DNA of 64,000 bases from Bdellovibrionota bacterium (GCA_044360075.1 JBIKLA010000005.1:84095-148094), one strand, 5' to 3'. Shown: positions 5,445 to 40,378, counted from the stretch's first letter. Notes: generated by a model not told the origin, from the sequence alone. Numbers and translations are program-made.

Positions 5445-6773
5445 CTACGGGGTCGAGAGGATAGGAGACGGCTCGCCCCTCGATGAATGTAGCAGGGCTG
5501 GATTCGCGCTGGAAGAGCTGGTGGCGGGAGGCTCAACGAGCTGCTCCCACAGAGGGCCGGTTTCTTTCACCTGCCCGAGACGGCTCATGCATAAGCCCTG
5601 CAGATGTATATGCTCCTCCGCGAGTTGGGGAGTCACCTTTACCTTCTCCTTGTCCGCGAGCGTGCAAATTGAGTCGATAACAGCCTTTGCGTCCTCTGCG
5701 CGCATCGCCACCAGAAGGGTGCGGGCCACGAAGAGCTCGGCACGTACGCGCTCAAGGCCGTGGGTACCCTGCGCAGCGCTCCGGGCCGCCGCTACCGCAC
5801 GATCGGCCCGAGCCCTGAAGTCACCAGGGGAGGTTTTGAGCCACAGGTCGATGACCTTCTTCCACTGCGCGGCATCCCCGCCAGAGGCCTTCGCCGCCTT
5901 GACGAGAAGCTCGGCGGCGTAGTCGAGGTTCCCGGCGGCGATCTCGGCCTGCGCCAAGCGGTCGAGCGCGGGAACGAAGCCCGAGTTTTTTTTCACGAAG
6001 GGGATGAGCGCCTCTCGCAGGGCAGCCTCGTTGTGTGAGTCCCGCACGATGCGGAGGAATGTGAGGCGCACGCGCGCGCGTGGCATCTCGTCGGATGCGT
6101 AGCCCATCTTCTCAAGCTCGTCCTGGTACTCAAGCGCGTCATCAAGGTGCCCCATGGCCTCAGAGAGGTTGCGCGCCTCCTCAAGCGCCTTCCTGTTCGG
6201 GGCGGCTTCTAGCACGATCGCCAGGTTGTCACGGGCTGCGGTGTTGTTGCCGAGCCGGTGGTTAATCTCTGCCGCACGGAAGAGCACCTCCAGGCTGGAC
6301 CTGCTGCTGGCGCGCGTTGAGTCGAGCACCCGCAGCGCCTCACGCAGATCGCCAACGGACTCAAGACACTTCGAGAGCTCGATGCGTGCGATTACGTTGT
6401 CGTGGTCGTGGTGCAAGACCTGCTCCCATACATCACGGGCCGCAGCGTATTCGCCGCCCGCCATGTGCGAGCGGGCTTTCACGAAGAGATCGAAGAAGGC
6501 CTGCCTATTTCGCTCGTGCGACCGAAGCTTGCGTTCCCGCAGGTAGCTCTTGAAGCCAAAGAAAAGGGCGACGAATGAGGCTGCTATGCATCCGAGAGCA
6601 AAAACTCCGATGTAGATAACCCCAGCGTAGGTGGTGACCTGCAGGGTTGGGCCGAGCTTGAGGGTCGCGGTCTCTGAGTTTGAGAGAGTAATGTACAGGA
6701 CTGCCCCAACGAGCAGCCCGAGCACTAGGAACCGGTTAAACTGTCTAAGCATGCCCACCCTCGCCGAGAACAA
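5445..6773 (-). CDS. TPR-repeat inner-membrane protein (LapB/YciM-like architecture but lacking the C-terminal rubredoxin Cys motif)
   Basis: N-terminal hydrophobic helix segments followed by multiple TPR-like helical repeats; there are no CxxC pairs at the C-terminus. Confidence 0.5.
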   Translation of the reverse strand: MFSARVGMLRQFNRFLVLGLLVGAVLYITLSNSETATLKLGPTLQVTTYAGVIYIGVFALGCIAASFVALFFGFKSYLRERKLRSHERNRQAFFDLFVKARSHMAGGEYAAARDVWEQVLHHDHDNVIARIELSKCLESVGDLREALRVLDSTRASSRSSLEVLFRAAEINHRLGNNTAARDNLAIVLEAAPNRKALEEARNLSEAMGHLDDALEYQDELEKMGYASDEMPRARVRLTFLRIVRDSHNEAALREALIPFVKKNSGFVPALDRLAQAEIAAGNLDYAAELLVKAAKASGGDAAQWKKVIDLWLKTSPGDFRARADRAVAAARSAAQGTHGLERVRAELFVARTLLVAMRAEDAKAVIDSICTLADKEKVKVTPQLAEEHIHLQGLCMSRLGQVKETGPLWEQLVEPPATSSSSANPALLHSSRGEPSPILSTP

Positions 6774-7446
6774 CTACCTGGGGGATTGTACTCTGGCGGT
6801 TTAGCGGGTGTACAGGGGGGTCCGTCATGATCGCATCAAGCTCCCTTAAAGCTCGCTTGCTGGGCACAACGCTGGAGCTCGTTGCCCCTGTTTCAAGCGA
6901 GCTAAAAGCTGGATCTTCGGAGGCAGGCTTCTTTTCGCTCCGCAGAGTTTTTTGCTTGTCGGCTTTTAACTCTGTGTAGGCTTCTGCCGTCGTCTGAGTT
7001 GCGGAGGCAGCTTGCGCTTGGACTGGCCTTCCCGATCCAGGAGCTTTCTTAAAGGTCGCAACGATAGCACTACCCGACGGAGAGTAGGCTCTGAGGCTGA
7101 TGGTTGCGTTGTCGCCGATACCGCCATCTTATTGCTTGCGATGCTGCTGGCTCCGACCTGCGGGAGTGTTGGTAGGTTGATGCCCCCGAGAGGCGCGATG
7201 GTTCCGGCGTTCTACGAGTTGGTGTCAATTTTCTCTATCATAATTTCACTCCCTAACACTCGGTCGTTGAGGCAGATATAGGGGCATCTGATTCAGTTGT
7301 GCGATGATGGATGAGAGAGTTACAGCGCGGATTGGCGTAAGATGCCGAGATTCCGTCGTGATTCAGAATCCAGCGGGAAACCTCTCTGAATCTTGCTCCC
7401 TGCTAACGGGACGTTGCCGGGCTTTTCGCGGTGAAAAAGAAAGCGC

Positions 7447-13023: not shown

Positions 13024-15129
13024 TTGAGGGCCATGGTGATCTTTCCCAAAGGCTCAAGTAAGGCCGCTCCCCCAAAAAATCCACCGTCCGATCCGCTCCT
13101 TGGTAGCTTCGTCGCCTACGAGGACAACGCGGCGCTCATTCTTGCCGTGGTAACCGGCTCGAAGAAGGACAAGCGCGTCATCTTCAACATTCGTGGCAGG
13201 GAGCTTGAGATCGCACAGAATCGGCTCTATGTGCTGCCTGGAAAGGAGGACGCCGGCGTTGCCAGCTCGGCGGCCCGACTTGAGAAGCTCAAAACCCTTC
13301 AGTCTCAGATAGACGCCGAAGCAGATGCGCTCAACGTGGCGGAGCTCTGGAGTTTTGTGCATGAAGATGTGCGGGCGTATTCGGTTGAGGATCTGTGCAA
13401 GAGCTACTTTGGGTCCAACGAACTCGCCAGGCATGCCGGGCTTCGCGCTGCCCTGATCCGGGAGAAAATCCACTTCAAGCGCGACAGGGATCTCTTCGAG
13501 CCGCGGCCCCAGGGCGTAGTCGATGATTTGCAGCGGGCTGAGGAGACAAAGCGCAAGAAGTCCCAGGTGCGTGAGGCAACTATAGAGTTCCTATCAAAGC
13601 GGATGAGGGATGGCTCTGTCCCGGTTCCTCACGAAGCCGAGGATAACATGCGGCTTATGGAGGAGGTTGCAGCTGGCATTCAGCATACCGATCCCGCACG
13701 CCAAAAGGAGGGCAGGGAGCTTGTGCATGCGGCCTGCGAAGCGCTCTCAATCGCACAGCACGCAAACATGGAGCGGCAGGCTTTTGAGCTTCTGCTCAAG
13801 GTGGGGCACTTTCACGAGGACACGAACCTTTCCCTTATCCGATACGGAATCCCAACCGGGCATGACGACGAGACCGTGCGCGAGGCGCGCGAGTGCGAGT
13901 TGCCTAGCAGCCTCGAAGCGTTTCCACCGCTCGAGCGGGAGCTGCGCGAGGACCTCACGCGCCTGCGCGCCCTGACGATCGATGACGCCTCCACGCAGGA
14001 CATGGACGATGCGCTGTCCCTTGAGCAGACGGCAGACGGCTGGGAGTTGGGGATCCATATAACCGACGTGACCTGCGCAGTCCTCCCCGAGACGCACCTC
14101 GACCGCTCTGCGCGCAGCCGCGCCACATCGCTTTACTGCGCCGACCGCACGATCAACATGCTGCCTGAGGAGCTTTCGGAGGAGAAAATCAGCCTGCGCC
14201 AAGGCACGGTCCGCCCGTGCCTCTCGGTGCTCGTGTCGCTTGATTCGGCCTTTGGCGTCAGGAGCTTCCGCCTCATCCCCTCGTTGGTAAAGGTTTCGCA
14301 GCGCTACACGTACGACGCGGTGGATGACCTGCTTGAGGTCGGGGATCCGACGCTCTCGATGCTCCATGACATAGCCGCCGCGTGTGAAGAGCGACGCATC
14401 CGAAGTGGCGCAGTGCGTGTCCAGAAGCGCGAGGCTGTTCCCTTCAAGGAAGCTGACGGTTCAATTCGGCTCCTTGAGATAGATGAGGACAGCCCGGCGC
14501 GGATACTCGTGTCGGAGATGATGGTGCTTGCCAACAATCTTATGGCTGAGTTTGCTGCGGAGCATCGCATCCCGGTGCTGTACCGCGGACAGGAGCGCCC
14601 CGAGGCGGTAGTGGTGGAGCAGCGGGAAGGGGCTCCGGAGGGTCCCGCCAAAGACTTTTCAGCTCGGACGAAGCTAAAGAAATCGACGGTGACCTTTGAG
14701 CCGCAGTACCATTCTGGCCTTGGGCTAAACGCATATATTCAGGCCACGTCCCCGATTCGGCGCTACCTCGACCTGTGCCACCAGCGTCAGTTTATTTCGT
14801 TTTTTAGGAGCTCAAAGCCGTGGGTCACGAGGCAGGAGCTTAGTCACATCTTTCATGAAGTCGAGGGCTCACTTCAGGCCGCAACCGTGGCGAGTCGCGA
14901 GACCCGCCGCTACTGGCTCATGCGGTATCTTGAGAAGCGCGACAGGACGACGCCAGTGATGGGGACGGTCGTTCGTCTCGACCTCAAGACGCCGCTTGTC
15001 GAGCTCGATGAGGTATACATTACCGTTTTTGCCCGCGTGCCGAAGGGAACTCGCATCGGCGCTCACCTACCGTTCAGGATCGCGGCTATCGACCCGAGAG
15101 CTGACTTTATAAGGCTGGAGGCTGTCTAA
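13024..15129 (+). CDS. RNase II/R-family 3'-5' exoribonuclease (RNB domain; no obvious N-terminal cold-shock domain)
   Basis: RNB motifs (IDDASTQDMDDALS, GIHITDV, S1-like C-terminus). The listed start at 13024 is a TTG; an ATG at 13033 is the alternative. Confidence 0.8.
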   Translation: MRAMVIFPKGSSKAAPPKNPPSDPLLGSFVAYEDNAALILAVVTGSKKDKRVIFNIRGRELEIAQNRLYVLPGKEDAGVASSAARLEKLKTLQSQIDAEADALNVAELWSFVHEDVRAYSVEDLCKSYFGSNELARHAGLRAALIREKIHFKRDRDLFEPRPQGVVDDLQRAEETKRKKSQVREATIEFLSKRMRDGSVPVPHEAEDNMRLMEEVAAGIQHTDPARQKEGRELVHAACEALSIAQHANMERQAFELLLKVGHFHEDTNLSLIRYGIPTGHDDETVREARECELPSSLEAFPPLERELREDLTRLRALTIDDASTQDMDDALSLEQTADGWELGIHITDVTCAVLPETHLDRSARSRATSLYCADRTINMLPEELSEEKISLRQGTVRPCLSVLVSLDSAFGVRSFRLIPSLVKVSQRYTYDAVDDLLEVGDPTLSMLHDIAAACEERRIRSGAVRVQKREAVPFKEADGSIRLLEIDEDSPARILVSEMMVLANNLMAEFAAEHRIPVLYRGQERPEAVVVEQREGAPEGPAKDFSARTKLKKSTVTFEPQYHSGLGLNAYIQATSPIRRYLDLCHQRQFISFFRSSKPWVTRQELSHIFHEVEGSLQAATVASRETRRYWLMRYLEKRDRTTPVMGTVVRLDLKTPLVELDEVYITVFARVPKGTRIGAHLPFRIAAIDPRADFIRLEAV

Positions 15130-15162: not shown

Positions 15163-17635
15163 TTACTTGCACACCGTTTCGGTGGTCGGCAGCTCGTTGA
15201 GGTTATCCAAGCCCTTGCGCTCTAGTTCCTTGGCTTTGCGAACGAGCGCGTCACGTCTGTTGGTCGAGCCGGTCTTGCGGAAGTACGCGCGGGCGATCGT
15301 TCGCTGCGCCTGGTTACGGGCGCTCGCAATGAGGCCCTTGAGCCGGGCGATGGTTTCTGTCCTGTCGACGGTCTCGCAATAAAGCGGCGCCTCTGGACAG
15401 TTTTTGATTACATCCGGGAATTGGATGGTTAAGCGGTTGGAGGCGGCAACAAATCCGTCCGCCTTGGCGCGTGCGCGCTGTGCGTCAGCTGCGGCACTAC
15501 CAGAGTCTTCTTCCGACGCCGCTTCAAGCACGTCTGCGGCCTCTTTTGTCAGGTTCGCAAGCTGAACCGTAATTTCGTCAAGCTCCCCTCGAGCTGCCCC
15601 GACAGCCGTATCGACACACTGGCCGTCACACACAGGAAGGCTTTCGTCCGCAACGGCTTTCCTGCCGTTGAGGTTCCAGTCTACCTGGGCTCCCGTCGAC
15701 GGAATGGTCACGTTGAAGAGGCCGGGATTGAGCCCAGAGAAGAAGACCGAGGGCTGGCCTCGGAAAGCCGGCACCGGTGCCATGAAGTTAAGGCCCCCTA
15801 CAGGGATCTCAACCGGGAACGGGTTGGGATTGCTGTATCCCGCCTTCGCCGTCAGCACTTGGTTGTTGAACCCCCGGCACGAGAACGCCGGCTCAACCAT
15901 TTGGCACTTTGGTGTTGATGCCGAGGCAGTGGCACGGGACTCAGCAGAGCGCGGGGCGCGAACGGTCCATGTGATCTCCGCCTCGCTGAACGATATCGCG
16001 ACGAGGCCCTTTTGGACCCCTGGCGCAAAAGCGGTCGGTTGCCCACGATCCTCTGCGCCGCTTGTGAAGCGATTAGTGACGACCGGCAAGCCGGACGACC
16101 CAACCGACATGAAAAACGTTTCCTGAGTCGTGTTGTTGTAGCTGAAGTAAGCCATACGGGAGCCATCGATATTATCCATGACACACTCAACCGAAAGGGA
16201 AAGCAGCGTACTATCGTCTCCCTCGTTGTTGTCTTGCGAGCTTGAGCAGCCGCCGTCAGCGAGGTCAGGCGCGCCATCAGCGTCGTTGTCGACCCCGTCC
16301 TGGCACTGGGCTTTCGGCGAGGATTCATCGCGGTCCTGCGGGCTTGAGCAGCTAAAGTCAGACGGGAAGTCAGCGGCACCATCGCCGTCGTTGTCGACCC
16401 CGTCCTGGCATTGGGAGGTGCCATCGCTCTCGTTGTCATCCTGCCTGCTTGAGCACCCCGGATCATTCAAGTCCGTCATGCCATCGTTGTCGTTGTCGAC
16501 GCCGTCTTGGCAGCTTGCCTTGGGCAGCGCCTCGTCGTTGTCCAGGGCACTTGAGCAGCTAAAGTCCGCCGGGTAGTCAGCCGCACCATCGTTGTCGTTG
16601 TCGAGGCCGTCCCGGCACTGCGGGGTGCCGTCTCCCTCGTTGTTGTCCTGGTTGCTGGAGCATCCAGGGTCATTAGAGTCGGTGACGCCGTCGTTGTCGT
16701 TGTCCACGCCATCTTGGCATTGAGACTTCGGTGAGCTCTCGTCGGTGTCCTGCGAGCTTGAGCAGCTAAAGTCCGCTGGGTAGTCAGCTGCGCCATCGTT
16801 GTCGTTATCGATGCCGTCCTGGCATTGAGACCGTGGCGAGCTCTCGTCGGGATCCTGGGGACTTGAGCAACTAGCGTCAGCCGGGAAGTCGGTTGCACCA
16901 TCGTTATCGTTGTCGATACCGTCCTGGCACTGCGACTTCGGCGAGCTCTCGTTGGTGTCCTGCGGGCTTGAGCAGCTAAAGTCAGCTGGATAGTCAGCCG
17001 CACCATCGTTATCGTTGTCGATGCCGTCCTGGCACTGCGAGGTGCCATCACCCTCGTTATTGCCTTGGTTGCTCGAGCACCCCGGATCATTGAGGTCGGT
17101 CAGGCCGTCCCCGTCGTTGTCGGCGCCGTCCTGGCACTGTGGCCGTGGATTCGCCTCGTCGTTGTCGCTTGCACTTGAGCAGCTGGTGTCCGCCGGGTAG
17201 TCGCGGGCGCCGTCGCCATCGTTGTCAATCCCATCGGCGCAAGCAGGAGTAACGCAATTGCACTGTACGTTCGTGACGTTGGCAGGATTACCAACCGCCT
17301 TCGCATTGGAGAGAACCTTTTGCTCGCCCGCCTCTCGGGCCGCAAAGTAGCAGTGAGTGTTGTTACCGGGGCTGCGGAAGGTGCCCGTGAGTACCGCCGA
17401 GTAGGTGAGAGACTCCCTGCTCGCAGCGCCGAGGGCAACCCGGCAAACCTCGCGAATCTCTTTGTCTTGGGCACTGACGCCGTCACAGCCCGCAACTCCG
17501 AAGTAGTTTTTTGCCTGGTAGTATCCGACGTATATGCTCTGGATCGCGCACTGGGCTTGGGCAATTTGCGGGATTAGTGAGCTGGACAAGACAGAAAGGA
17601 TCAGAGCCTTGAGGAGCTTAGGAGTACGCATCATG
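15163..17635 (-). CDS. secreted Ca-binding repeat protein (10 thrombospondin-type-3-like DxDxDG repeats, Cys-rich)
   Basis: Signal peptide MMRTPKLLKALILSVLSSSLIPQIAQA; alternating 34/35-aa repeats CQDG(I/V)DNDNDG...; the ATG start at 17633-17635 was chosen rather than the upstream in-frame extension. Confidence 0.7.
16200..17240. repeat. ~1-kb tandem DNA repeat (period ~105/210 bp) encoding the TSP3-like protein repeats
   Basis: The visible nucleotide periodicity matches the 34/35-aa alternating protein repeats. Confidence 0.7.
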
Positions 17636-18045
17636 GGATATCTCACGCGATAAACAACTTTGGAGCAACGATACAACAGTTGGCGGAAACCGACCGAAAC
17701 CAGGCGCAACAACCCAAAAAACCACGATTGAAATAATCCGATTGGGGCAAAAGAGCAAATCACAGGTGACTTTTGTTACCAACCAATTTTCCCTCTGTAG
17801 CCAGGCTCCACGCCCACCGAAGCCACAAGCCAGCCGTCCCCCAAACGGCCGCAAGCCGAGGAGGAGATGAGCACGAGCGGTGGACAGAAGATACACGTCC
17901 CCCTAGCGTCCCGGAGAACGCGTGAGCGGTGTGGATGGTGTGCCTACGCCCTGAAGACGTTGGCGAGCTTCGGCATAGACGGGGGGAACAGCCCGGGCGG
18001 ATCGCGCACAGAGGTGCCTCCCTGGTGCCATCTCTCTCTAGGCGA

Positions 18046-18545: not shown

Positions 18546-21059
18546 ATGACTCAGGACCACGACCAGCGGCCAAAAGGCGGTGCTGGGCAAGACCGGGATC
18601 GGCAGTCAGCTCGTCATGAGGCGGGAACCCCCGCCCCGTTGGACCTATCTGCGGCAACCGGCGTTGGCGAAGCGTGCACGACGGCCTCCGTACTGCGCAA
18701 GTTGCACGCCTACCTTAATGATGCCGAGAAGGGAGCAGCCTCCGTGCTTCGGGACCCGCAGGTCGGCGTTGTGCAGGATCTCCACGAGTTTTATCGCCAG
18801 GACAAGACGTGGGGATTTATCAAGCTTCCGACTGGGTCCGGCAAGACGGTCATCTTTGCTGAGATCGCTGAGGCACTTAATCTTCCGACCCTCGTCGTCG
18901 TGCCCAAGATTGGAATAGGGGACCAAACTGTTAACACCTTCCGCAAGTTCGCCCCTGACATGAAGGTCTCCCCGATTTTTGCGGGACAGCACGACGACAG
19001 TGGGCAGGTAGTTGTGACTACCTACCAGTATCTTGCGCAGGCAGCTCAGGATGGTCGGCTCGACCTCTCGCGATTTCAGTTTGTGATTCTCGACGAGGCA
19101 CATAAAAGTCTCGGCACCGAGATGCTTAAGGTCCTTGAAAGCATAGAGGACTCAACGAGAGTGCTCGGCTTCACTGCGACCGACACGTACAACGAGGAGA
19201 AGAACCTTGAGGCGCTGCTCGGTGAGTGCATATCCGACATGCCTATCTCGAGCGCCGTAAAACTGGGAATGCTGACACCGATCTCCGTCATCGTGGCGAA
19301 GACCACCATCGACGTAAGCGACGTGGAGATTAAAGCTAGTGGCGAGTACGACGAGCGCGCTCTCGAAAAGCGCATTCTGGCTGCCGGAATAAACAAGGCC
19401 TGCCTCGACACGTACAAAGCCGGCTTTGACGGCAAGAGCGCCATCGCTTTCTGCACGAGTGTTGCGCACGCCGAGGAGGCCGCAGAGATTTTCAACGAAA
19501 GCGGAGTCCCTTCTGCGGCGGTGAGCGGCTCGTTATCGCGAAAGGAGCAGGCGCGCATCCTTGAGGAGTACCGCAGCGGAAAGATAAAGGTTCTCTTTAA
19601 CGCTGACCTACTCATCGAGGGATTCGACGCGGAGATTGCCTCGGTGTGCCTCAACATGGCGCCGACCGGCTCGCTAATCGTAGCAGAGCAGAGAGCTGGC
19701 CGGGCGTTTCGCCTCAATCCGGGCGACTCGAGCAAGGTGGGATACGTCGTCGAATTCGTTTACGACGATGCGCGGCGACAGTCGCCGGTAATTCTCTACT
19801 CGGACATCATCGGCGGGACCGCCTGCCCACCGCCCGGGCAGTTGGCAAGCGCCGCAAAGGCAGAGATGGACTCAACGATTGAGAAGCTTAGCCGCTCTCA
19901 GATCGAGGGACTCACCATACACGTCGACGCAAGCTCCGTTCTTGAGATCGCAGCGAAGCTTAAACCTGCAACGTTCGTTGCATCTCCCCCGGATGGCTGG
20001 ATTTCGACGTCTGAGCTTGGGCGCTCCCTGCGCGCATCCCTCTCTACCGTCATGAAGATGATCAGCACCCTCACGCCGGAGGAGGAAAAGAGAGTGCCCC
20101 TCGACCAGCACTGCGGCCACTATCGCGCCCCGTCCACCGGACGGCTGTCGCTCCATTGCTCACCTGAATTGGCCGAACTCATTGCAGCCAAGCGCCGAGA
20201 GTTTGAGCCCCCGCAGGGATGGATGACCATAACTGCCATCGCAGAGCTCTTTTCGGTGCCTCCCAGTAAGGTTCAGCCGGTGCTTCGGGAGGTTGCAGCG
20301 GGCAGTCCCGACATGATTCGGCAGTACGCTATTCGGCGTGGCGGCCTGCGTGAGCACTACTCACCCGAGTGCATAGAAGCCGCGCGTGAGCATCTGCGGG
20401 TCAATCCAGAGAAGTTGCCGATGTTTTCTTCGGCTTCCGTTGCATCCAAGTGCAAGGTTCCTGACTTTGTGATGAGGTCATGGGTGCGCGAGCTGGTTGA
20501 AAGTGGGGAGCTGTACGAGGTTATTAAGCTCAGCAAGACCGGCAAGCCGACGTTGCGCATTACCCAGCAGCCAGGCGCTGAGAAGAAGATGCGCGATAAG
20601 GCGATCGCGTTTCATGGGCGTGACCTCGAGCAGGAGCGCTCACTGGATGAGATCGCGAAGGACATGAATGTAGGTGTCTCCAAGGTTGCCGACGCTCTTG
20701 CGCGCCGTTTTGGAAGGGCGCCGCAGCCCTCAGACACGTCAGTTCCGCTGGATCTTGAGGAGCCCCTGAAGCGCATAGTGGCGTCTGAGTCGACGGGACC
20801 ACTGCCGGAGTGGGTGATGTCAAACGACCTCGCTAGAGAGGCCCAAGACATGCTGTCGTCCTTTCCCATAGCAACCGGCATTGCTAGGAACATCATTCAA
20901 AAACGGCTGGACGCTCTCATCAGCCGCCTTCCCGAGTATCACCGACTTCCATTTCGTGATCCCGCTTCGGGAGCCACACGCGACTACTACTCGCCGCAGT
21001 TCTCCAAGCTTTTCCTGGACCCTGAGCACTGGCGTGATCTCGCCGAAGAGTATCAGTAA
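18546..21059 (+). CDS. SF2 DEAH-box helicase (Res/XPB-like core) with a ~400-aa uncharacterised C-terminal region
   Basis: Walker A LPTGSGKT, motif II ILDEAHKS, motif VI QRAGRAFR; the C-terminal half has no recognisable motifs. Confidence 0.75.
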   Translation: MTQDHDQRPKGGAGQDRDRQSARHEAGTPAPLDLSAATGVGEACTTASVLRKLHAYLNDAEKGAASVLRDPQVGVVQDLHEFYRQDKTWGFIKLPTGSGKTVIFAEIAEALNLPTLVVVPKIGIGDQTVNTFRKFAPDMKVSPIFAGQHDDSGQVVVTTYQYLAQAAQDGRLDLSRFQFVILDEAHKSLGTEMLKVLESIEDSTRVLGFTATDTYNEEKNLEALLGECISDMPISSAVKLGMLTPISVIVAKTTIDVSDVEIKASGEYDERALEKRILAAGINKACLDTYKAGFDGKSAIAFCTSVAHAEEAAEIFNESGVPSAAVSGSLSRKEQARILEEYRSGKIKVLFNADLLIEGFDAEIASVCLNMAPTGSLIVAEQRAGRAFRLNPGDSSKVGYVVEFVYDDARRQSPVILYSDIIGGTACPPPGQLASAAKAEMDSTIEKLSRSQIEGLTIHVDASSVLEIAAKLKPATFVASPPDGWISTSELGRSLRASLSTVMKMISTLTPEEEKRVPLDQHCGHYRAPSTGRLSLHCSPELAELIAAKRREFEPPQGWMTITAIAELFSVPPSKVQPVLREVAAGSPDMIRQYAIRRGGLREHYSPECIEAAREHLRVNPEKLPMFSSASVASKCKVPDFVMRSWVRELVESGELYEVIKLSKTGKPTLRITQQPGAEKKMRDKAIAFHGRDLEQERSLDEIAKDMNVGVSKVADALARRFGRAPQPSDTSVPLDLEEPLKRIVASESTGPLPEWVMSNDLAREAQDMLSSFPIATGIARNIIQKRLDALISRLPEYHRLPFRDPASGATRDYYSPQFSKLFLDPEHWRDLAEEYQ

Positions 21060-31081: not shown

Positions 31082-31636
31082 CTAATTTCCGGTCTGGTCG
31101 CCGCCCGGTGTGGGGATCGGCTTGGCCTTGATAGCGAGGATCAGGCCCTTGTTTTCGGCGCAGTCCATACCAGTGACGACGGAGTCATCTGTGTCGAAGT
31201 GAACGCGGGTGTTTAGGATCTCGCTGTTGTCGGCGTCACGCCAGTTGAGCCACAGGCCGACCCGTTTTTGGTCCATGTACATCGGCCGAAACACGAGCGT
31301 CTGGCCATTGGGAAGCTTCATCATCTCGCGCTTCTTAAGGGAATGCGTCTCGCTCTTTGACGAAAGGAGTAGGAATGAGCGGAAGGGAAGCTGGGAGAGC
31401 TTTGCTTCAATATCAGAGAGGTCAGCGGGGACCTTCGGCGCTTGCGCCTCTTCGCCCTCGCGAGGCTCAGGCTCTATGGGGTCAGAAGCTTGAATGGTGC
31501 GCACAGAGACGACCACTGACCCGGGCTCTTGTTCTACATCCTCGGCAAGCGCCGGCGAGGCTACAAGCGCGAATAGGAGGGAGGGAATGAGGGCAAGGAG
31601 GCGGTTGGGTGTGCGAGGAGGCGGGACATCGATCAT
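31082..31636 (-). CDS. secreted hypothetical protein, third gene of the ECF sigma operon
   Basis: Signal peptide LLALIPSLLFALVASPALA; co-directional and tightly spaced after the anti-sigma gene. Confidence 0.5.
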   Translation of the reverse strand: MIDVPPPRTPNRLLALIPSLLFALVASPALAEDVEQEPGSVVVSVRTIQASDPIEPEPREGEEAQAPKVPADLSDIEAKLSQLPFRSFLLLSSKSETHSLKKREMMKLPNGQTLVFRPMYMDQKRVGLWLNWRDADNSEILNTRVHFDTDDSVVTGMDCAENKGLILAIKAKPIPTPGGDQTGN

Positions 31637-31642
31637 AGCGTA

Positions 31643-32347
31643 CTATTTCGACAGCTCTTTCGGTTGCCCGTCAATACCAAGATGAGGTGTCTCGATTAGC
31701 GCCGGCGTTGCCTGAGCCGCGCCGATCGCACGGGGAGCCGGCTTGAAGGCGGCTCTGCGGCGCACCCAAATGGTGGCCGACTTGCCCGATGGGTTCTGAA
31801 TAAGCTTAAGGGAGCCGTTGTTGGAGCGCATCCAGTCTACTTCCATGGTGGACTGGGATCCGTTCGTGAACGAAGCTGGACGGGCATCAAGGCCGCCCAG
31901 GGCATTCTGTCGGAATCCCGGTGTAGGCGATGCGGAAAGCGGCTGCTTGCCCGTGCTGGGCTGAGAAACAACGATGAGGACGGCGGCAGCCACGGCAGCG
32001 CCGGACAACCCACCAAAAAATGCCTGGCGCGAGCGAATGTTGGGCAAAAAGCGCGAGGCTTCCGCGCTTTCCCGACGGTCTCCAAGATAGAACGCAGCGC
32101 GCTCTTCAGCCTCGATGCGGTTTTCAATGCGCGACCACAGGTCGGCCTTAATGACGCTCGCTTCCGAGGCGGCTCGCACGTCAGTTGCGATTTCGGAGAG
32201 ATTTTCGAGAAAAGCCTTGGCGAGGGGATTGGAAGCGATAAGACGCTCGGCACGGCGGCGGGTAAAGAAGCCACTCTCGCCGTCGAAGTATTGTGAGAGG
32301 AGAATCTCTTCGTGCTCGGTAAGCATCCGCGAATCTTCGTTTACCAT
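31643..32347 (-). CDS. anti-sigma factor (RseA-like, single TM)
   Basis: N-terminal anti-sigma helix EHEEILLSQYFDGE; a central TM (GLSGAAVAAAVLIVV); it lies immediately downstream of the ECF sigma gene. Confidence 0.65.
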   Translation of the reverse strand: MVNEDSRMLTEHEEILLSQYFDGESGFFTRRRAERLIASNPLAKAFLENLSEIATDVRAASEASVIKADLWSRIENRIEAEERAAFYLGDRRESAEASRFLPNIRSRQAFFGGLSGAAVAAAVLIVVSQPSTGKQPLSASPTPGFRQNALGGLDARPASFTNGSQSTMEVDWMRSNNGSLKLIQNPSGKSATIWVRRRAAFKPAPRAIGAAQATPALIETPHLGIDGQPKELSK

Positions 32348-32356
32348 AATGCGTCC

Positions 32357-33085
32357 TCAGCGAGCCTTCACTAACTCATCAGAGGAGGATGCTTCATCAT
32401 CCTCCCTTTCTGGCTGATCTTCTTCTAAAGCACCAGGGCCCGAAGGGCTAAATTCCTTTAGAGCCTTCTGCAGAGCCTTGCGCGCGTAAAAAAGTCGGCT
32501 CATCACGGTGCCACGAGGAATGCCGATCGCGTCGGCGATCTCCTGGTAGTCCAATCCTTCTACCTCTCGTAGCGTGATGACCGCCCGATGCTCCTCTGAA
32601 AGATCGCTCAACACGGCCTGCAGCCGGCTGCCAAGCTCCTTTCGAGCAATCGCATCGTAGGGGCCCTCCACATTCTGGAGGTGCTCCAGGCTGCTGGACT
32701 TGGTGGGACCCGAACTCTCGGGACCGAATCCAGAGCCTCCAGCATTGACGCCCCAGCTCTCCTTGAATTCAACGTGACTACCCCCACGGCGGGCTCCCCG
32801 ACGCTTCGCGTCGATGGCCATGTTGAAGGTGATGCGGTAAAGCCAGGTGTAGAAGGACGAGTCTCCCTTGAATTTCTTTAGGGATAAGAAGGCCTTAACG
32901 AAGCTCTCCTGAACGACATCCTCGGCTTCCGTACGGTTTTTCAGGATGTCTGCCGCAAGGGTGAGGAGGCGACCCTGATAGCGCTCTACGAGGGTGCGGT
33001 AGGCCTCGCGGTCACCCTTCTGGGTGTGCCGAACGAGCTCCTGGTCCGAAGGACCCTGTTCACTCCGCTTTGTTTCACCGCCCAT
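32357..33085 (-). CDS. ECF (sigma-24 / RpoE-type) RNA polymerase sigma factor with an acidic C-terminal tail
   Basis: Region 2 (YRTLVERYQGRLLTLA...VQESFVKAF) and region 4 (LREVEGLDYQEIADAIGIPRGTVMSRL). Confidence 0.85.
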   Translation of the reverse strand: MGGETKRSEQGPSDQELVRHTQKGDREAYRTLVERYQGRLLTLAADILKNRTEAEDVVQESFVKAFLSLKKFKGDSSFYTWLYRITFNMAIDAKRRGARRGGSHVEFKESWGVNAGGSGFGPESSGPTKSSSLEHLQNVEGPYDAIARKELGSRLQAVLSDLSEEHRAVITLREVEGLDYQEIADAIGIPRGTVMSRLFYARKALQKALKEFSPSGPGALEEDQPEREDDEASSSDELVKAR

Positions 33086-33759
33086 AGCTCTTTCTTATAA
33101 GGCCGAAGCCGCCGGCTTTCGACCTGGCGAGCTTATCCCATGGGGTTACCGTGTGGAAGGGTCATGCAAACCCGGAGGGAGCGCGGAGGCTGCCGGATAA
33201 AAAGCTGTGCGTAACGTGCTGGAAACGGCTCGATTAGGGGCGCTGAGTCGGTTTGGTCGATGGGGAGGTTCCCCCGCGCAGGCGCTAAGAAAACTAGTCC
33301 AGCGAGTGCCGGGGCGTTGGGACCTCTTTATTCCTGGCCCCGTTCTCCGCCGGAGGCCAGGTGGGAGAGAGGACTATCTCTCTCAAGTGTTCGATCATGG
33401 CGGGTGTTATGACGAAGCTCTCTCGCATGTATAAAAATGAGCGGGGTAGCGCGACTGAGTCAAAGTTCTCGGCCGGCTTCTTTTCGATGTGGGAGGAGTG
33501 ATTGGGTTCCATATGAAAGTAGCAGCCCGGCGCCCATGGAGCTTCGGTTCGCGGGGGCTTAAGCGCTAAGAGTATCGCTTCTGCGCCGTGGGGCCTATGC
33601 GTTGCGCTATACGACCGTGCGTAAGCCCGGTGATCGCCGAGCTCAAGCAGCGGTCTTTATGTCACCATGCTGGTTAATGAAAGAGCATGGCTCGCTGACG
33701 CGCTTGATGTCGCGCACCCTTTGAATCGGCCTCTAGGGCAAGCCAGCTTACCCGCAGCC

Positions 33760-35115
33760 TCAGGGCTTCCGGCGAGGTGTGTTGCTTTCCAGCTCAGCCC
33801 GGAGTGGGGCAAGCATGCGCGACAGGGAGCTGCCGCCCGGAAGACCGCGCGAGCCTGCTCGCGCAGCGTACTCGACGTTGAGCCAGGTGATGCCGGACAG
33901 ACCGCTGAGATCCTCCTGGGAGAGGTTGGTCGGCAGGCGTCCATGCGTGCGGTGATACTCCCGGGCGGCAGCATGAATTATCTCTTCGGTGAGCTGCACG
34001 CCGGTGGGCGCAAGCTCTTTTCGCAGGGGAGCCAAAAGCTTGGCCAGAGTTGTTCCTCCGGGAAGGCCTCGCAGGCCACGGGAGAGCGCGTGATTGAGGA
34101 TGCACCAGGTATCGCGCGGCAACCCAGGGGGCCGCTGCGAAGAGTCCCCGGACTTCGGCAGCCGGCCATTCAGGCGGTGGAATTCCTGGGCTGCCTCAAC
34201 TATACCGGCTTCGGAAAGAGGGGGATTCATTCCAAGCTCCGCCCGAAGGGGGGCCAAAATCTTCGACACGGTGCGCCCCTGCAAGAGACCTCGCGAGCCG
34301 TTCTGGCCGGCGAAATTAATGCCCGGCCATGTCTCGTTCGGCAGAGAAGGAATCGGCTCTCGGCTGTGATGCGTCGGCAGTCGCCCATGCAGTCGGAAAA
34401 AGTCGCGCGCAGCCGCGCGCACTGAGTCCTCGTTCAGGAGCGGCTTTCGGAGGGTGCCGGGCGGAACGCCCTGTGCAGGAGCGTTGTGCTGCTTTCGAAG
34501 CGGCCGCATAAACTCAGAGATGCCCTGTGCAGACGAGTTGAGGCAGCGACCCGAACTCATCGCGTGGGCTATGGTCCTCCATGTCTCGCTTGGCAGCCCC
34601 GAAACGGTGCCCTGTGATCCCGCAGAGGGAAACCGACCAGTATGCCGGAAATACTCGAGCGCGGCGCTCCGCAGCTCCTCCTCTGTGATAATGCGAAGGG
34701 GAGCCAGGATCGCTGAGAGGCTGCTTCGGGGAAGGCCGCGCAGGCCATAGAAGGCTGCGTTGTTGATTGAATGCCATGTGCAGCCGGGAATGCTGGGCGC
34801 CGGCTCTCGCGAAGCGCTTGAGGGGAGCGAGCCCGTTTGGCAGAGGTGCTTGAGCGCCGCGAGTTGGATCTCCTCAACTGTGAGCCTGGGTATGGCCCTC
34901 TTGCAATCCTCATCCGGCAGTGCAGCTTCGGGGGGTTGAGAGAGCTGGCGCTCAAGCAGCTCCGCAAGCTTCGCGAGCTGCCGCGCAGAGAGCTTTGTCG
35001 TATTGAGCGACTCGAGCGCGGCTGCAACGGCTGCAGCGAGAGCATCGCCCGATGGAGAGGGCAGCATGAATGCGCGAGTGCCGCTGCTAGGCTGAGGCGA
35101 GTTATGATGGCTCAT
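33760..35115 (-). CDS. tandem-repeat protein (5 x ~72 aa; helicase-associated HA-domain-like repeats)
   Basis: Repeats of L(T/S)EE.I..AA.E(Y/F).R.HGRLP...S......GLP.(E/D)TW..IN.A...G.RGLPGG.SL...LAPLR.EL. Confidence 0.55.
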   Translation of the reverse strand: MSHHNSPQPSSGTRAFMLPSPSGDALAAAVAAALESLNTTKLSARQLAKLAELLERQLSQPPEAALPDEDCKRAIPRLTVEEIQLAALKHLCQTGSLPSSASREPAPSIPGCTWHSINNAAFYGLRGLPRSSLSAILAPLRIITEEELRSAALEYFRHTGRFPSAGSQGTVSGLPSETWRTIAHAMSSGRCLNSSAQGISEFMRPLRKQHNAPAQGVPPGTLRKPLLNEDSVRAAARDFFRLHGRLPTHHSREPIPSLPNETWPGINFAGQNGSRGLLQGRTVSKILAPLRAELGMNPPLSEAGIVEAAQEFHRLNGRLPKSGDSSQRPPGLPRDTWCILNHALSRGLRGLPGGTTLAKLLAPLRKELAPTGVQLTEEIIHAAAREYHRTHGRLPTNLSQEDLSGLSGITWLNVEYAARAGSRGLPGGSSLSRMLAPLRAELESNTPRRKP

Positions 35116-35545
35116 TCAATCACCCCCTCCCTCTACTCTTCGCGCCTCTTAGCGTGACTCATCGATTACCGGAGAAACGATCGAACGAACGGCTCAACGG
35201 CAGCAGGCGAATCGTCAAGCGCGGGCGGCTCGCTGCTGGGGTCCTCGTGCACGATCTGAAGAATCTCTCGGCTGAGCTTGCCCTTTTCGTCGCCAGTTAA
35301 TTGATCGCCGCTGAGGAGCTCCCTAAAGCACTCAAGAAGCCATGCCTGCTCGCCCTCGATGAGCGAATCATTCGCCATACGATCTCTCCGCCGGATAACG
35401 CACGTGTGGGCGTTTCCCAAGGACCAAATAGTAGCGGCCCATTATGGCTTGTCAAACAACAGTGGGCATAGGTGGTATCTGGCGGTCTTCAGTTGTAGGA
35501 ATCGGTATGATTCGTTAACCCGAGAGGCCAAAACGTGAGTGACCG

Positions 35546-38284
35546 TTAAGACTGCGCTTCCTGCCACGAGAAGCCCGAGCCGACTTCGACCTTAAGCGGA
35601 ACCTTGAGTGACATGACCCCTTCCATAGCCTGCTGCACAGCCGCGATGAGCTCGCGGTTTTTGGCCTCGCCGTGATCGGGCGCCTCGATCAGAAGCTCGT
35701 CGTGGATCTGGAGGATAAGTTTCGCCCCAGGGAATCTGTCAGTGAGGACTTTCTCGACCTCGATCATCGCAAGCTTGATGATATCCGCAGCGGAGCCCTG
35801 GAGCGGTGCGTTGATGGCCGCGCGCATCGCAAAGCCCTGGTCGCGACCGCTTGTGTCGATCGAGCTGATGACGCGCTTGCGCCCGAAGATCGTCTGAACC
35901 TCGCCATGCGAGAGGGCGGCATCCTCAAGCTTGGCGAAGTACTCCTTCACGCGCGGGTAGCGGCTGAAGTAGTTCTGGATGTAGGAGCTCGCCTGGTGCA
36001 CTGGGATGCCGAGCTCCTTGCCGAGCCGAAATGCTCCCATGCCGTACACAATGCCGAAGTTGATGGTCTTGCCGACGCGGCGGTCTTGGTCTGAGACCTC
36101 CTCTGAGGCAGTGAGCCCCATGATCTCACGCGCGGTGCTTGCGTGAATGTCGGTGCCCTCGGTGAAGGCGCGGATGAGGTTCTCGTCACCGCTGAGATGC
36201 GCGAGGAGCCGCAGCTCGATCTGAGAGTAGTCAGCCGCGACGAAGAAGCTGCCTTTCTCAGGGACGAAGGCAGACCGAATCCGGCGGCCCTCTGGGCTCT
36301 GGACCGGGATGTTCTGCAGGTTTGGGTCGGAGCTCGAAAGTCGCCCCGTGCTCGTGATGGTCTGGTTGAGCCTCGTGTGCACGCGGCCCGTTTTGGGACA
36401 GATGTCCTCCGCGAGCGCGTCGGTGTAGGTTGACTTAAGCTTGTGGAGGCTGCGGTACTCAAGGATGCGGGCTGGTAACTCGTGTGACTCAGCGAGCTTC
36501 TCCAGCACGGAGGAGTCGGTTGAGAAGCCCGTCTTGGTTTTTTTCACGCCCTTGGTCGAGATGCCGAGCTTGTTGAACAGGATGTCGGCAAGCTGCTTGG
36601 TTGAGTTGATGTTGAACTCGCTGTCAGCAAGCTCGTAGATACGCTTCTCAAGGTGCTTAAGCTGCTGCTCGAACTCAGCCGACATCTGGACGAGCATCGC
36701 CTTGTCGACCTTGACGCCGCGAACCTCCATCTTAGCGAGGACCGGGATGAGCGGCACCTCAAGCTCGTTGAGCACCTTGGTTAGGCCAGACTCGTCGATT
36801 AGGGAAAGGAGCTTGCCCTTGAGGAGCCAGGCGTAGTGCGCATCCTGGCAGGCATAGCGGGTCGCTGCGGCGATCGAGACGCCCGAGAAGTCGGCAACTC
36901 CCTCTGTCACCTCGTCGTACTCGATGACGGGGAGGTGCAGGAACTCTTCGGCGAGGGCCGTAAGGTTAAAGCTTCGGCTATCGGGATTGAGCAGATAGGC
37001 AGCGACCATCGAGTCGAATGAAACGCCCTGCACCTCGATGCCGTGGATGGCGAGCACGCCACTATCGTACTTTATGTTTTGCCCGCACTTTGCGATTGCC
37101 CGGTTGCCGAAGATCTTCGACGTGCCCTCGAAAAAATCCTGCCATGAGACCTGGCCTGGCTGGTCGGCATGGCCGAGCGGCACGTACCACGCACCACTAT
37201 CGCTCCACGAGAACGACACCCCGACGATCTTGGCCTCGTGCAACGCAAGCGAGGTCGTCTCAAGGTCAAAGGAGAACTCCTTCTGTGCGCCAAGCTCTTT
37301 GAGCCATTCCGCGAAGTCGCCGGCAAGCACCGTCTTGTACTCAAAGCCAAGCTCCGCTTCGCTCTTGCGCGGCGCCCTAAGGATCTTCTGGAAGTCCCTA
37401 AAGAGCGATTGAAACTCAAACTTCTCAAAGAGCTCGCGCAGGTGATCGGCATCGAGGTCGCGCTTGGTAAGGAGCTCCTCGATATCAGCGTTTCCGTTCT
37501 CGATGGCTTCAAGCGGGACGTTGGCGTCCACCTCAACGAGCTTGCGCGAGAGGCGCAGGAGCTCAAGGTTGGCTTCGATCGACTCGGCGATCTTCTTGCG
37601 GTTCCTTATCTCGGCGTCATTTTTGATGTCTTCGAGGTGGGCTATGACGCTCTCGACCGTGCCGTATTTCTGGATGAGCTGCGTTGCAGTTTTGGGTCCG
37701 ATTCCCTCAACGCCTGGGATGTTATCGGAGGAGTCACCCGTGAGCGCGAGCACCTCTGTGACCCGGTCTGGCCCGACACCGAACTTCTCGACGACGCCGT
37801 CAGCGCCGAAGTGCTTGTCCTTCATCGTGTCCCAGATCTGAACGTGATCAGACACGAGCTGCATGAGGTCCTTGTCGCCGCTGACGATGACGACGTCCTT
37901 CTTGCGCTCGACGAGCCTCTTGGTGAGCGTTGCGATGATATCGTCTGCCTCGTAGCCAGGGCACTCAAGGACGGGCAGTCCAAGCGCCTTCGACAGTTCC
38001 CGGAAGTAGGGCATCTGCTCGACGAGCTCGGGTGGGCACTCGGTGCGGTTGGCCTTGTACTCAGCGTAGAGATCATTGCGGAAGGTCTTCCTTCCCGCGT
38101 CGAAGATGATGGCCACCTTGCTTGAGTTCGCCTCGGCGATCGTCTTTTGGATCATCTTTAGGAACCCAAAGAGGGCGTTGGTTGGGAACCCGCTCTTGGT
38201 CGTAAGTCGCTGGATAGCGTAGAAGGCTCGAAAAATGTAGCCCGATCCGTCGATGAGGTAGGTGTGTTCCGAAGGGTTTGTCAT
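35546..38284 (-). CDS. polA: DNA polymerase I
   Basis: 912 aa; 5'-3' exonuclease N-terminus (YLIDGSGYIFRAFYA), 3'-5' exonuclease and Pol A motifs (DYSQIELR, QIHDELL). Confidence 0.95.
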   Translation of the reverse strand: MTNPSEHTYLIDGSGYIFRAFYAIQRLTTKSGFPTNALFGFLKMIQKTIAEANSSKVAIIFDAGRKTFRNDLYAEYKANRTECPPELVEQMPYFRELSKALGLPVLECPGYEADDIIATLTKRLVERKKDVVIVSGDKDLMQLVSDHVQIWDTMKDKHFGADGVVEKFGVGPDRVTEVLALTGDSSDNIPGVEGIGPKTATQLIQKYGTVESVIAHLEDIKNDAEIRNRKKIAESIEANLELLRLSRKLVEVDANVPLEAIENGNADIEELLTKRDLDADHLRELFEKFEFQSLFRDFQKILRAPRKSEAELGFEYKTVLAGDFAEWLKELGAQKEFSFDLETTSLALHEAKIVGVSFSWSDSGAWYVPLGHADQPGQVSWQDFFEGTSKIFGNRAIAKCGQNIKYDSGVLAIHGIEVQGVSFDSMVAAYLLNPDSRSFNLTALAEEFLHLPVIEYDEVTEGVADFSGVSIAAATRYACQDAHYAWLLKGKLLSLIDESGLTKVLNELEVPLIPVLAKMEVRGVKVDKAMLVQMSAEFEQQLKHLEKRIYELADSEFNINSTKQLADILFNKLGISTKGVKKTKTGFSTDSSVLEKLAESHELPARILEYRSLHKLKSTYTDALAEDICPKTGRVHTRLNQTITSTGRLSSSDPNLQNIPVQSPEGRRIRSAFVPEKGSFFVAADYSQIELRLLAHLSGDENLIRAFTEGTDIHASTAREIMGLTASEEVSDQDRRVGKTINFGIVYGMGAFRLGKELGIPVHQASSYIQNYFSRYPRVKEYFAKLEDAALSHGEVQTIFGRKRVISSIDTSGRDQGFAMRAAINAPLQGSAADIIKLAMIEVEKVLTDRFPGAKLILQIHDELLIEAPDHGEAKNRELIAAVQQAMEGVMSLKVPLKVEVGSGFSWQEAQS

Positions 38285-39688: not shown

Positions 39689-40378
39689 TTAAGCAACAAA
39701 CTTGTAGCCGACACCGTGCACGGTAAGGATGTGCTGGGGCTCGTCGATATTGGCCTCTATCTTCTGCCTCAGGCGGGCTATGTGGTTATCAACGGTCCGA
39801 GTGGTGGGATAGGAGTTGTAGCCCCACACCTCATCCAGGAGCTCATCTCGGGTCACCACGTTGCCCTGTTTAACGACCAGGTAGCGAAGTAAGCGGTACT
39901 CTCGAGCTGAGAGGTCTATCGGCTGTTGGTTTTTAACGGCTCGGTAGGCCTTAAAGTCCACCACCACGTCCGAGAAGCGGATTTCGTCGACCGAGGTAAC
40001 CCGCTGAACTCGCCGGAGAAGTGCCTTCACACGGGCGAGCAGTTCAAGCATTCCAAAGGGTTTCGCCAGATAGTCGTCGGCGCCCAGGTCGAGACCGAGT
40101 ACCTTGTCGACTTCACTTGAGCGGGCTGTTAGCAGGATGAGGGGAGTAGAGATGCCAGCGGTTCGAAGCTCCCTGCAGGTCTGCAGGCCGTCTTTGCGGG
40201 GCATCATCACATCCATGATGATGATGTCAGGCTTGCGGTCGTTAACGAGCTTGATTCCTTCTTCGCCGTCTGCGGCGGTAACAACCTCGAACCCTTCAAG
40301 TTCTAGGTTCATGGTGACGCTTTTGCGGATGATATCCTCGTCCTCTATGACTGCGACAACAAACCCGTCTCCGCGCAT
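39689..40378 (-). CDS. OmpR/PhoB-family response regulator (orphan)
   Basis: Receiver domain (IIIMDVMMPRKDG) and winged-helix C-terminus (LTAREYRLLRYL...VWG). Confidence 0.85.
   Translation of the reverse strand: MRGDGFVVAVIEDEDIIRKSVTMNLELEGFEVVTAADGEEGIKLVNDRKPDIIIMDVMMPRKDGLQTCRELRTAGISTPLILLTARSSEVDKVLGLDLGADDYLAKPFGMLELLARVKALLRRVQRVTSVDEIRFSDVVVDFKAYRAVKNQQPIDLSAREYRLLRYLVVKQGNVVTRDELLDEVWGYNSYPTTRTVDNHIARLRQKIEANIDEPQHILTVHGVGYKFVA

Follow-up and report, generated by a model that had tools for sequence, protein, structure and literature searches.

Type ISP restriction enzymes, such as LlaGI and LlaBIII, are described in PMC3553950 as an Mrr nuclease joined to a helicase, a methylase and a target-recognition domain. 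The helicase-associated (HA) domain (PF03457) is reported to bind DNA in the title of Mills 2013 and in a statement of PMC12191111, which also mentions its fusion to other defence nucleases. Here, we describe a gene encoding five tandem repeats of ~74 aa in a 64,000-nucleotide stretch of DNA (hereafter the window) from a Bdellovibrionota bacterium (GCA_044360075.1 JBIKLA010000005.1:84095-148094), and compare it with both systems. The repeat-array gene is real and conserved, and belongs to a large family for which there is neither a Pfam nor an NCBIfam model; in some relatives the same unit follows a nuclease-helicase core, and most of the 120 best homologs of that core end in HA arrays. We lean, with modest confidence, towards reading the window protein as a basic, free-standing array whose five three-helix modules bind DNA – a positional, and probably functional, counterpart of HA arrays – that is accompanied by an acidic partner protein.

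The repeat gene (Table 1) runs from an ATG to a stop codon, and its 451-aa product has an isoelectric point (pI) of 10.15 and consists of a 76-aa N-terminus, five tandem units and little else, which is the layout of the basic-array family to which we assign it. A sequence-only reading of the window, made by a model, had placed this open reading frame (ORF) exactly, and its count of five tandem units is borne out by translation and by five matches to a hidden Markov model (HMM) of the unit in the wider family (E 1e-11 to 1e-19). The HMM has no other match in the six frames of the window, and the repeats are thus far beyond chance. The motifs listed in that reading are also present, as (E/D)(Y/F).R.HGRLP, (G/S)LP..TW..IN, RGLPGG.SL and LAPLR.EL, with units 1 and 2 being more degenerate. 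The units range from ~65 to 86 aa and share 32-48% amino acid identity in pairwise comparison; unit 2 is the most degenerate and bears a long basic linker. At the nucleotide level, however, pairwise identity is only 44-57%, and Tandem Repeats Finder reports no array of the unit's period in the window DNA. The near-tandem DNA repeat that the sequence-only reading had supposed to underlie the protein is therefore absent, and the repeat is old and discernible at the protein level only. A 252-aa antisense ORF (33667-34425, plus strand) overlaps the gene and is presumably a GC-rich artefact, and a terminator-like GC-rich hairpin with a T-run (34404-34422, minus strand), lying inside the reading frame where unit 3 begins, probably occurs by chance.

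A homolog search covering 5.8 billion proteins identified more than 228 homologs, many of them at E<1e-40 and almost all labelled 'hypothetical proteins'; those with named sources are from Planctomycetota (Gemmata, Gemmataceae, Isosphaeraceae, Pirellulales and Phycisphaerales). The closest ortholog is intact and 97% identical. Because the ORF is conserved, it is not the unconserved GC-rich chance ORF that the sequence-only reading had held out as the alternative. Codon differences from a close (98%-identical) ortholog, 13 synonymous and 12 non-synonymous, are too few to be informative. An exhaustive profile search using 113 aligned units (alignment A3) against 1.84 billion representatives matched 3,540 representative clusters, mostly from Planctomycetota, at E<=1e-3, with 1,376 of them passing the stricter threshold of E<=1e-30. 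The number of units per member is 3-11 in the first 121 proteins and 5-14 in the 150 top representatives, at a modal spacing of 74 aa, and the proteins are extremely basic, with a median pI of 11.3 and a mean net charge of ~+4 per unit. The window array does stand alone, as the sequence-only reading had emphasised, but this is not unusual: stand-alone arrays are the majority form, accounting for 125 of the 150 top representatives, and long non-repeat flanks are found in the other 25.

The conserved scaffold of the unit is T...IL.WADAH..RTG.WP...SG.....PGETW.....AL..G.RGLPGG.SL..LL...RG.R, and in A3 the Pro at the end of helix 1 and the Trp at the start of helix 2 are invariant, with G, R, G and L conserved in at least 90% of units. 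The Bdellovibrionota branch is distinguished by a helix 1 of the form AA.E(Y/F)HR.HGRLP, as opposed to W.AD.HH.RTG.WP elsewhere, and by units ending in ILAPLR.EL. Existing collections do not capture the family. No NCBIfam model matches the window protein, Pfam gives scattered, inconsistent and sub-threshold matches on 10 homologs and no recurrent family on the 113 single units, and PADLOC, PHROGs and PDB sequence searches with the array protein give no match. A single borderline match to HTH_Tnp_Tc5 (22.3 bits) was seen in P0006. A profile scan of genome contigs with the window protein as the single query was also blank, and a literature search found no paper describing the G.RGLPGG repeat.

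Structure prediction, which the sequence-only reading had named as a check on its proposal, yields a three-helix unit. The AlphaFold2 (AF2) model of unit 5 alone, built from the 113 aligned units, has a predicted local distance difference test score (pLDDT) of 88.6 and a predicted TM-score (pTM) of 0.73, with helices at residues 4-18, 38-47 and 58-71 of the 78-aa segment. The ~74-aa unit is, on this confident prediction, a three-helix module: a 15-residue helix 1 is followed by a G.(W/L)P motif, a ~20-residue loop, a 10-residue helix 2 beginning at the invariant Trp, a G.RGLPGG loop of ~10 residues, and helix 3. A model of the full-length protein, built from a 27-sequence alignment, has an N-terminal hairpin and then five three-helix units with per-unit pLDDT of ~80-90. 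Because its pTM is low (0.31), the units are best regarded as independent beads on a string. The hairpin motif, sAL..aAL.aL....LS..q..L, is retained in seven homologs (P0005, P0006, P0010, P0023, P0029, P0036 and P0038).

One clue to function comes from family members in which the array is fused to other domains. In one architecture Mrr_cat_2, ResIII/DEAD and Helicase_C domains are followed by 5-14 units (for example P0126, P0157-P0159, P0170, P0188 and P0245), and N-truncated copies of this arrangement are also present; P0266-P0268 likewise carry the unit C-terminal to a superfamily 2 (SF2) helicase. In a second architecture the units follow Mrr_cat_2 directly, with no helicase between (P0137, P0180, P0198 and P0210). 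Taking P0158 without its repeats (aa 1-665) as the query, we classified the best 120 of 1,107 core homologs: 95 have HA arrays, 12 have the unit described here, and none has both. The HA-bearing cores are 41-45% identical to the P0158 core (E~1e-150), and where named are from Mycobacterium and other Actinomycetota and annotated as 'Helicase associated domain protein'; the named unit-bearing ones are from Gemmataceae, Planctomycetaceae or Planctomycetes. Neighbour joining of 125 cores, drawn from these classified homologs and seven fused family members, gave a tree in which one clade contains 18 of the 19 unit-bearing cores, and 94 of the 95 HA-bearing cores fall on the other side. Since the type of array follows the core almost perfectly, it is inherited with the core, and the pattern fits either a single ancient divergence in situ or a single replacement.

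Both kinds of core match the PADLOC profile REase_MTase_IIG over positions ~16-652 of 1646 (E 2e-122 and 1.4e-146). Because this is the nuclease-motor part of a IIG/ISP-like profile, and because of the order of domains in Type ISP enzymes, HA arrays and unit arrays probably occupy the position of the DNA-recognition part in Type ISP-like enzymes, that is, where Type ISP enzymes have their methylase and target-recognition domains. The fused relatives share the N-terminal Mrr nuclease and SF2 motor of those enzymes but lack the methylase (the array-less P0274 excepted), and the window protein has no nuclease, motor, methylase or PADLOC match of its own. The slot C-terminal to the core is modular in further ways. 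P0274 has an N6_N4 methylase there (aa 700-760) and no array, P0306 has one unit followed by Cys-rich FG.LTV...C.CDCG...SCGC repeats (aa 723-1008), and P0269 has INT_rpt-like repeats (aa 660-941), although this INT_rpt (PF14882) match is weak (22.6 bits, below the cut-off). INT_rpt-like repeats are interchangeable with the unit in this helicase slot, but no sequence relationship between the two was detected. INT_rpt and the homing-endonuclease-associated repeats are small helical modules found on nucleases of mobile elements or defence systems, and the unit may also resemble the latter.

How closely the unit is related to HA itself is a separate matter. The sequence-only reading had likened the repeats to HA through their hGh..P and Trp features. 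Part of this comparison holds, as the unit is associated with helicases in part of the family and profile-profile alignment reproduces the register, but profile tests detect no HA similarity. PF03457 (gathering score 28.4 bits) does not match the window protein at E<=10, 10 homologs at E<=1, the fused helicases P0158, P0266 and P0267 at E<=1, or any of the 113 single units at E<=10; overall it is silent in all 21 proteins and 113 units at these permissive thresholds. By comparison, P0346, used as the positive control, reaches 289.5 bits over seven HA units. Genuine HA units, taken from the core-homologous helicases, have the consensus KWEEGFARLEEYVEREGHARVPQSYVEDGFRLGRWVATQRAAYRRGKLSAERERRLEALPGWTW and a period of 69-70 aa. 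HMM cross-searches of the unit profile against HA-bearing proteins, and the reverse, were empty. Alignment of A3 with 140 HA units by hhalign gives a score of 12.7 (P 0.047, probability 1.1%), and its best register places hG..P onto hG..vP and the unit's Trp onto the Trp of LG.W; however, a score as high or higher is obtained with 10 of 60 column-shuffled HA profiles. As the score is no better than shuffled controls and the cross-searches are empty, sequence similarity to HA is not demonstrable.

The unit could nevertheless be a genuine, very divergent member of the HA family and homologous to PF03457, which we regard as possible, though tentatively so. Both types of repeat are tandem, of similar length (74 as against 69-70 aa), described or predicted as three-helix units, and placed C-terminal to orthologous Mrr_cat_2-ResIII-Helicase_C cores, and their landmarks (helix, G..P, loop, Trp, helix, helix) follow a similar order; the segregation of array type with core phylogeny is also what divergence in situ predicts. 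Against this, cores that are ~49% identical carry arrays with nothing detectable in common, which fits module replacement at least as well. The signatures also differ, with G.RGLPGG.SL in the unit and LG.WV..QR and LPGW in HA, as do the hosts, the unit being found in Planctomycetota and Bdellovibrionota and HA mainly in Actinomycetota in the set seen here, and the window protein lacks any helicase. Among solved chains, 2KTA, a 74-aa 'putative helicase', is alone in matching an HA array, and does so weakly; it is apparently the HA structure of Mills 2013, an NMR structure of BVU_0683(627-691).

The favoured reading is that of a DNA-binding array equivalent to HA in position. We infer that the unit binds DNA because of its basic charge, its repeated occurrence in fusions with enzymes that cut or translocate on DNA, and the kind of slot that it occupies, and DNA binding is also the activity reported for HA in the sources cited above. 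Each unit would bind DNA and the array would confer multivalent binding, so that the stand-alone window protein may be a DNA-binding protein without catalytic domains, having an architectural or coating role or acting in trans. The array may be co-transcribed with the 70-aa acidic protein encoded beside it, which could conceivably modulate the basic array by binding either to it or to its N-terminal hairpin.

Several observations weigh against this reading. Foldseek searches of the unit model against PDB and BFVD, and of the full-length model against PDB, return nothing significant; the helix-turn-helix (HTH)-like matches – TetR 1z0x (TMq 0.46), sigma region 4 1l0o_C and LexA – are all at E>3. 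The 50 matches listed for the unit model, from a total of 56 at E<=10, do not include 2KTA, an absence that also counts against homology with HA. The Bdellovibrionota branch has exchanged the W.AD.HH of helix 1 for AA.E(Y/F)HR, and the properties of the window subfamily may differ for this reason. The window protein is less basic than planctomycete members, its units carrying charges of +1 to +4. The acidic partner is absent from a Bdellovibrionota-like subgroup (L005-L007) and from the planctomycete contexts. Finally, no helicase or nuclease gene adjoins the repeat gene, whether in the window or in related contexts, of which nine are of Bdellovibrionota type and three are planctomycete, so that the sequence-only suggestion of looking for a helicase beside the relatives' repeat genes drew a blank in all 12.

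A more far-reaching proposal, to which we give rather little credence, is that the unit is a new modular DNA-recognition repeat, arrays of which serve as the targeting domain of Mrr nucleases and Type ISP-like nuclease-translocases, and that the free arrays form a separate system. In that case variable residues of the loop and helix 2 could tune specificity and the enzymes would be natural nuclease-array fusions. The free arrays of Bdellovibrionota, amplified into clusters of paralogs and expressed with a dedicated acidic partner that may be a DNA mimic or chaperone, might coat, mark or protect DNA, acting for example as nucleoid proteins, in anti-restriction or self-protection against cognate nucleases, or as predation factors.

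Explanations that dispense with DNA binding become progressively less likely, from a protein scaffold through an RNA-binding array to a chance ORF or an immunity protein. A scaffold or adaptor binding the acidic partner or other proteins would accord with the common use of tandem helical repeats in protein binding, with the conservation of the acidic 70-aa partner, with an N-terminal hairpin that is specific to the subfamily, and with the lack of significant matches to HTH or other DNA-binding folds noted above. We consider it unlikely, as the family is extremely basic, its units form independent beads that provide no solenoid surface, and its recurrent fusions are specifically to enzymes that cut or translocate on DNA, at a position where DNA-recognition modules are otherwise found. 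Still less probable is an array that binds RNA such as transcripts, ribosomal RNAs or other structured RNAs. Basic helical repeats associated with SF2 helicases are compatible with this too, and the Pfam entry for HA describes that domain as only possibly nucleic-acid binding. However, the fused enzymes combine an Mrr-type PD-(D/E)xK nuclease with a Type ISP-like core for translocation on DNA, and the reports on HA concern DNA. A chance GC-rich ORF, a decaying fragment of a helicase gene or an Imm1-type immunity protein is very improbable: the window is 59% GC with overlapping ORFs on both strands, and Pfam gives an Imm1 (PF14430) match of 27.3 bits against a cut-off of 22.4, but the motifs are conserved across thousands of proteins, the 97% ortholog is intact, and the gene has a ribosome-binding site (RBS)-like stretch, a promoter-like site and a conserved partner. 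The Imm1 match was discarded because it is short, pairing aa 369-398 with profile positions 93-121 of 125, and recurs in neither the 10 homologs nor the 113 units.

The acidic partner gene lies upstream of the repeat gene on the same strand. Its 70-aa product is 51-52% identical to products of ORFs upstream of repeat-gene arrays in contexts L003 and L004 (E~1e-19), and relatives are also present in L008 and L010, such that an acidic ORF precedes one to four repeat genes, of 1-5 units each, in five independent contexts. A word-indexed search with the 70-aa ORF found three near-identical proteins only, the other relatives being found through these contexts, and the protein has no Pfam, NCBIfam, PADLOC, PHROG or PDB sequence match. 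The sigma-70-like site (Table 1) is the probable promoter of a two-gene operon, and both start codons have a purine-rich, RBS-like stretch before them.

In Bdellovibrionota relatives, repeat genes also form tandem clusters of two to four paralogs, each with 1-5 units and some with Pro-rich linkers. These paralogous clusters of varying unit number suggest rapid expansion and contraction of the family. One L003 copy looks frameshifted, with 5860-6375 resuming in a different frame as 6376-7134. In L004 (490-1482) and L010 (1408-2400) the module of small ORF and repeat gene is near to, and divergent from, phoH(-ybeY), probably by coincidence, and PhoH was rejected as an adjacent helicase partner because it is divergently oriented and part of a housekeeping phoH-ybeY unit.

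The adjoining polA product is 81% identical to that of an uncultured Bdellovibrionales metagenome-assembled genome (MAG) and 71-75% identical to those of freshwater Bdellovibrionota MAGs, which places the window in the Bdellovibrionota branch. The flanking genes are conserved in Bdellovibrionota MAGs in the ancestral order response regulator-polA-extracytoplasmic function (ECF) sigma-anti-sigma, with the partner/repeat pair located between polA and the sigma gene in the window lineage only. This junction is variable, consisting of 57-130 bp in L019 and L020, 1.4 kb in L011, 2.5 kb in L015, and the gene pair in the window, and in the nearest MAG the pair is on a different contig. The partner and repeat genes are thus an accessory, relocatable module. 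A functional link to the adjoining polA was rejected, as none of 80 polA loci in other genomes has the pair nearby.

The only SF2 helicase of the window (18546-21059, plus strand) is 12.7 kb from the repeat gene, behind unrelated genes. This 837-aa ATPase is of the ResIII/Helicase_C/SWI2_SNF2 type; it has no copy of the repeat unit, and its C-terminal ~440 residues match no Pfam domain. An 866-aa ORF at 15163-17763 (minus strand) has no Pfam match at E<=1e-4. Comparison with a 98%-identical relative shows a clean 2,350-bp insertion/deletion near ~33233 (between 33086 and 33759), with flanks aligning at 97-99%. Between their repeat and ECF sigma genes, L001 and L002 carry a segment, absent from the window, that encodes a 540-aa NHL/Flg_new_2-like, secreted-looking protein (L001 12012-13634) and an 87-aa ORF (13776-14039).

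Table 1. Features of the repeat-array locus and its surroundings; positions are those of the window unless another context is named.
Feature	Position	Strand	Remarks
Repeat-array gene, 451 aa, basic	33760..35115	-	ATG-to-stop ORF; stop codon 33760-33762
N-terminal helical hairpin, aa 23-59	34939..35049	-	AF2 helices H23-38 and H44-59; specific to Bdellovibrionota subfamily
Repeat unit 1, aa 77-141	34693..34887	-	Unit HMM 39.7 bits; AF2 H80-94, H114-123, H133-140
Repeat unit 2, aa 142-227	34435..34692	-	Unit HMM 32.8 bits; AF2 H145-159, H179-187, H199-209
Repeat unit 3, aa 228-300	34216..34434	-	Unit HMM 50.2 bits; AF2 model
Repeat unit 4, aa 301-375	33991..34215	-	Unit HMM 55.6 bits; AF2 model
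Repeat unit 5, aa 376-451	33763..33990	-	Unit HMM 58.8 bits; single-unit AF2 model
RBS-like purine-rich stretch GGAGGGGG	before ATG at 35115	-	Read from sequence
Upstream partner gene, 70-aa acidic protein	35166..35378	-	Ends 50 bp before repeat gene, same strand; pI 4.25
RBS-like purine-rich stretch GGAGAG	before ATG at 35378	-	Read from sequence
Sigma-70-like promoter, TTGACA-16-TACTAT	35428..35455	-	10/12 matches; consensus scan only
184-aa protein	31082-31636	-	Conserved neighbour in Bdellovibrionota MAGs
Putative anti-sigma	31643-32347	-	Conserved neighbour in Bdellovibrionota MAGs
ECF sigma	32357-33085	-	Conserved neighbour in Bdellovibrionota MAGs
polA	35546-38284	-	Conserved neighbour in Bdellovibrionota MAGs
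Response regulator	39689-40378	-	Conserved neighbour in Bdellovibrionota MAGs
Paralog clusters, L004	4283-7769 and 11028-11750		
Paralog cluster, L008	3216-6873		
Paralog cluster, L003	5860-9190		

That a small helical repeat should bind nucleic acid is in itself unsurprising, and its function is one that we infer; the locus does, however, bring to light an HA-like, nuclease/helicase-associated repeat family missed by existing models, and the window has the free-standing form, which is the most frequent. No fewer than 3,500 protein clusters now without domain annotation could be defined as a new repeat family, a planctomycete and bdellovibrio counterpart of the poorly understood HA domain. The shared Mrr-helicase core ties both types of repeat to Type ISP-like restriction enzymes and suggests that the arrays replace the methylase/target-recognition module, which provides a testable hypothesis for HA-type arrays in general. 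The free arrays with their acidic partner may, in turn, represent a simple two-protein system for DNA binding and its regulation.

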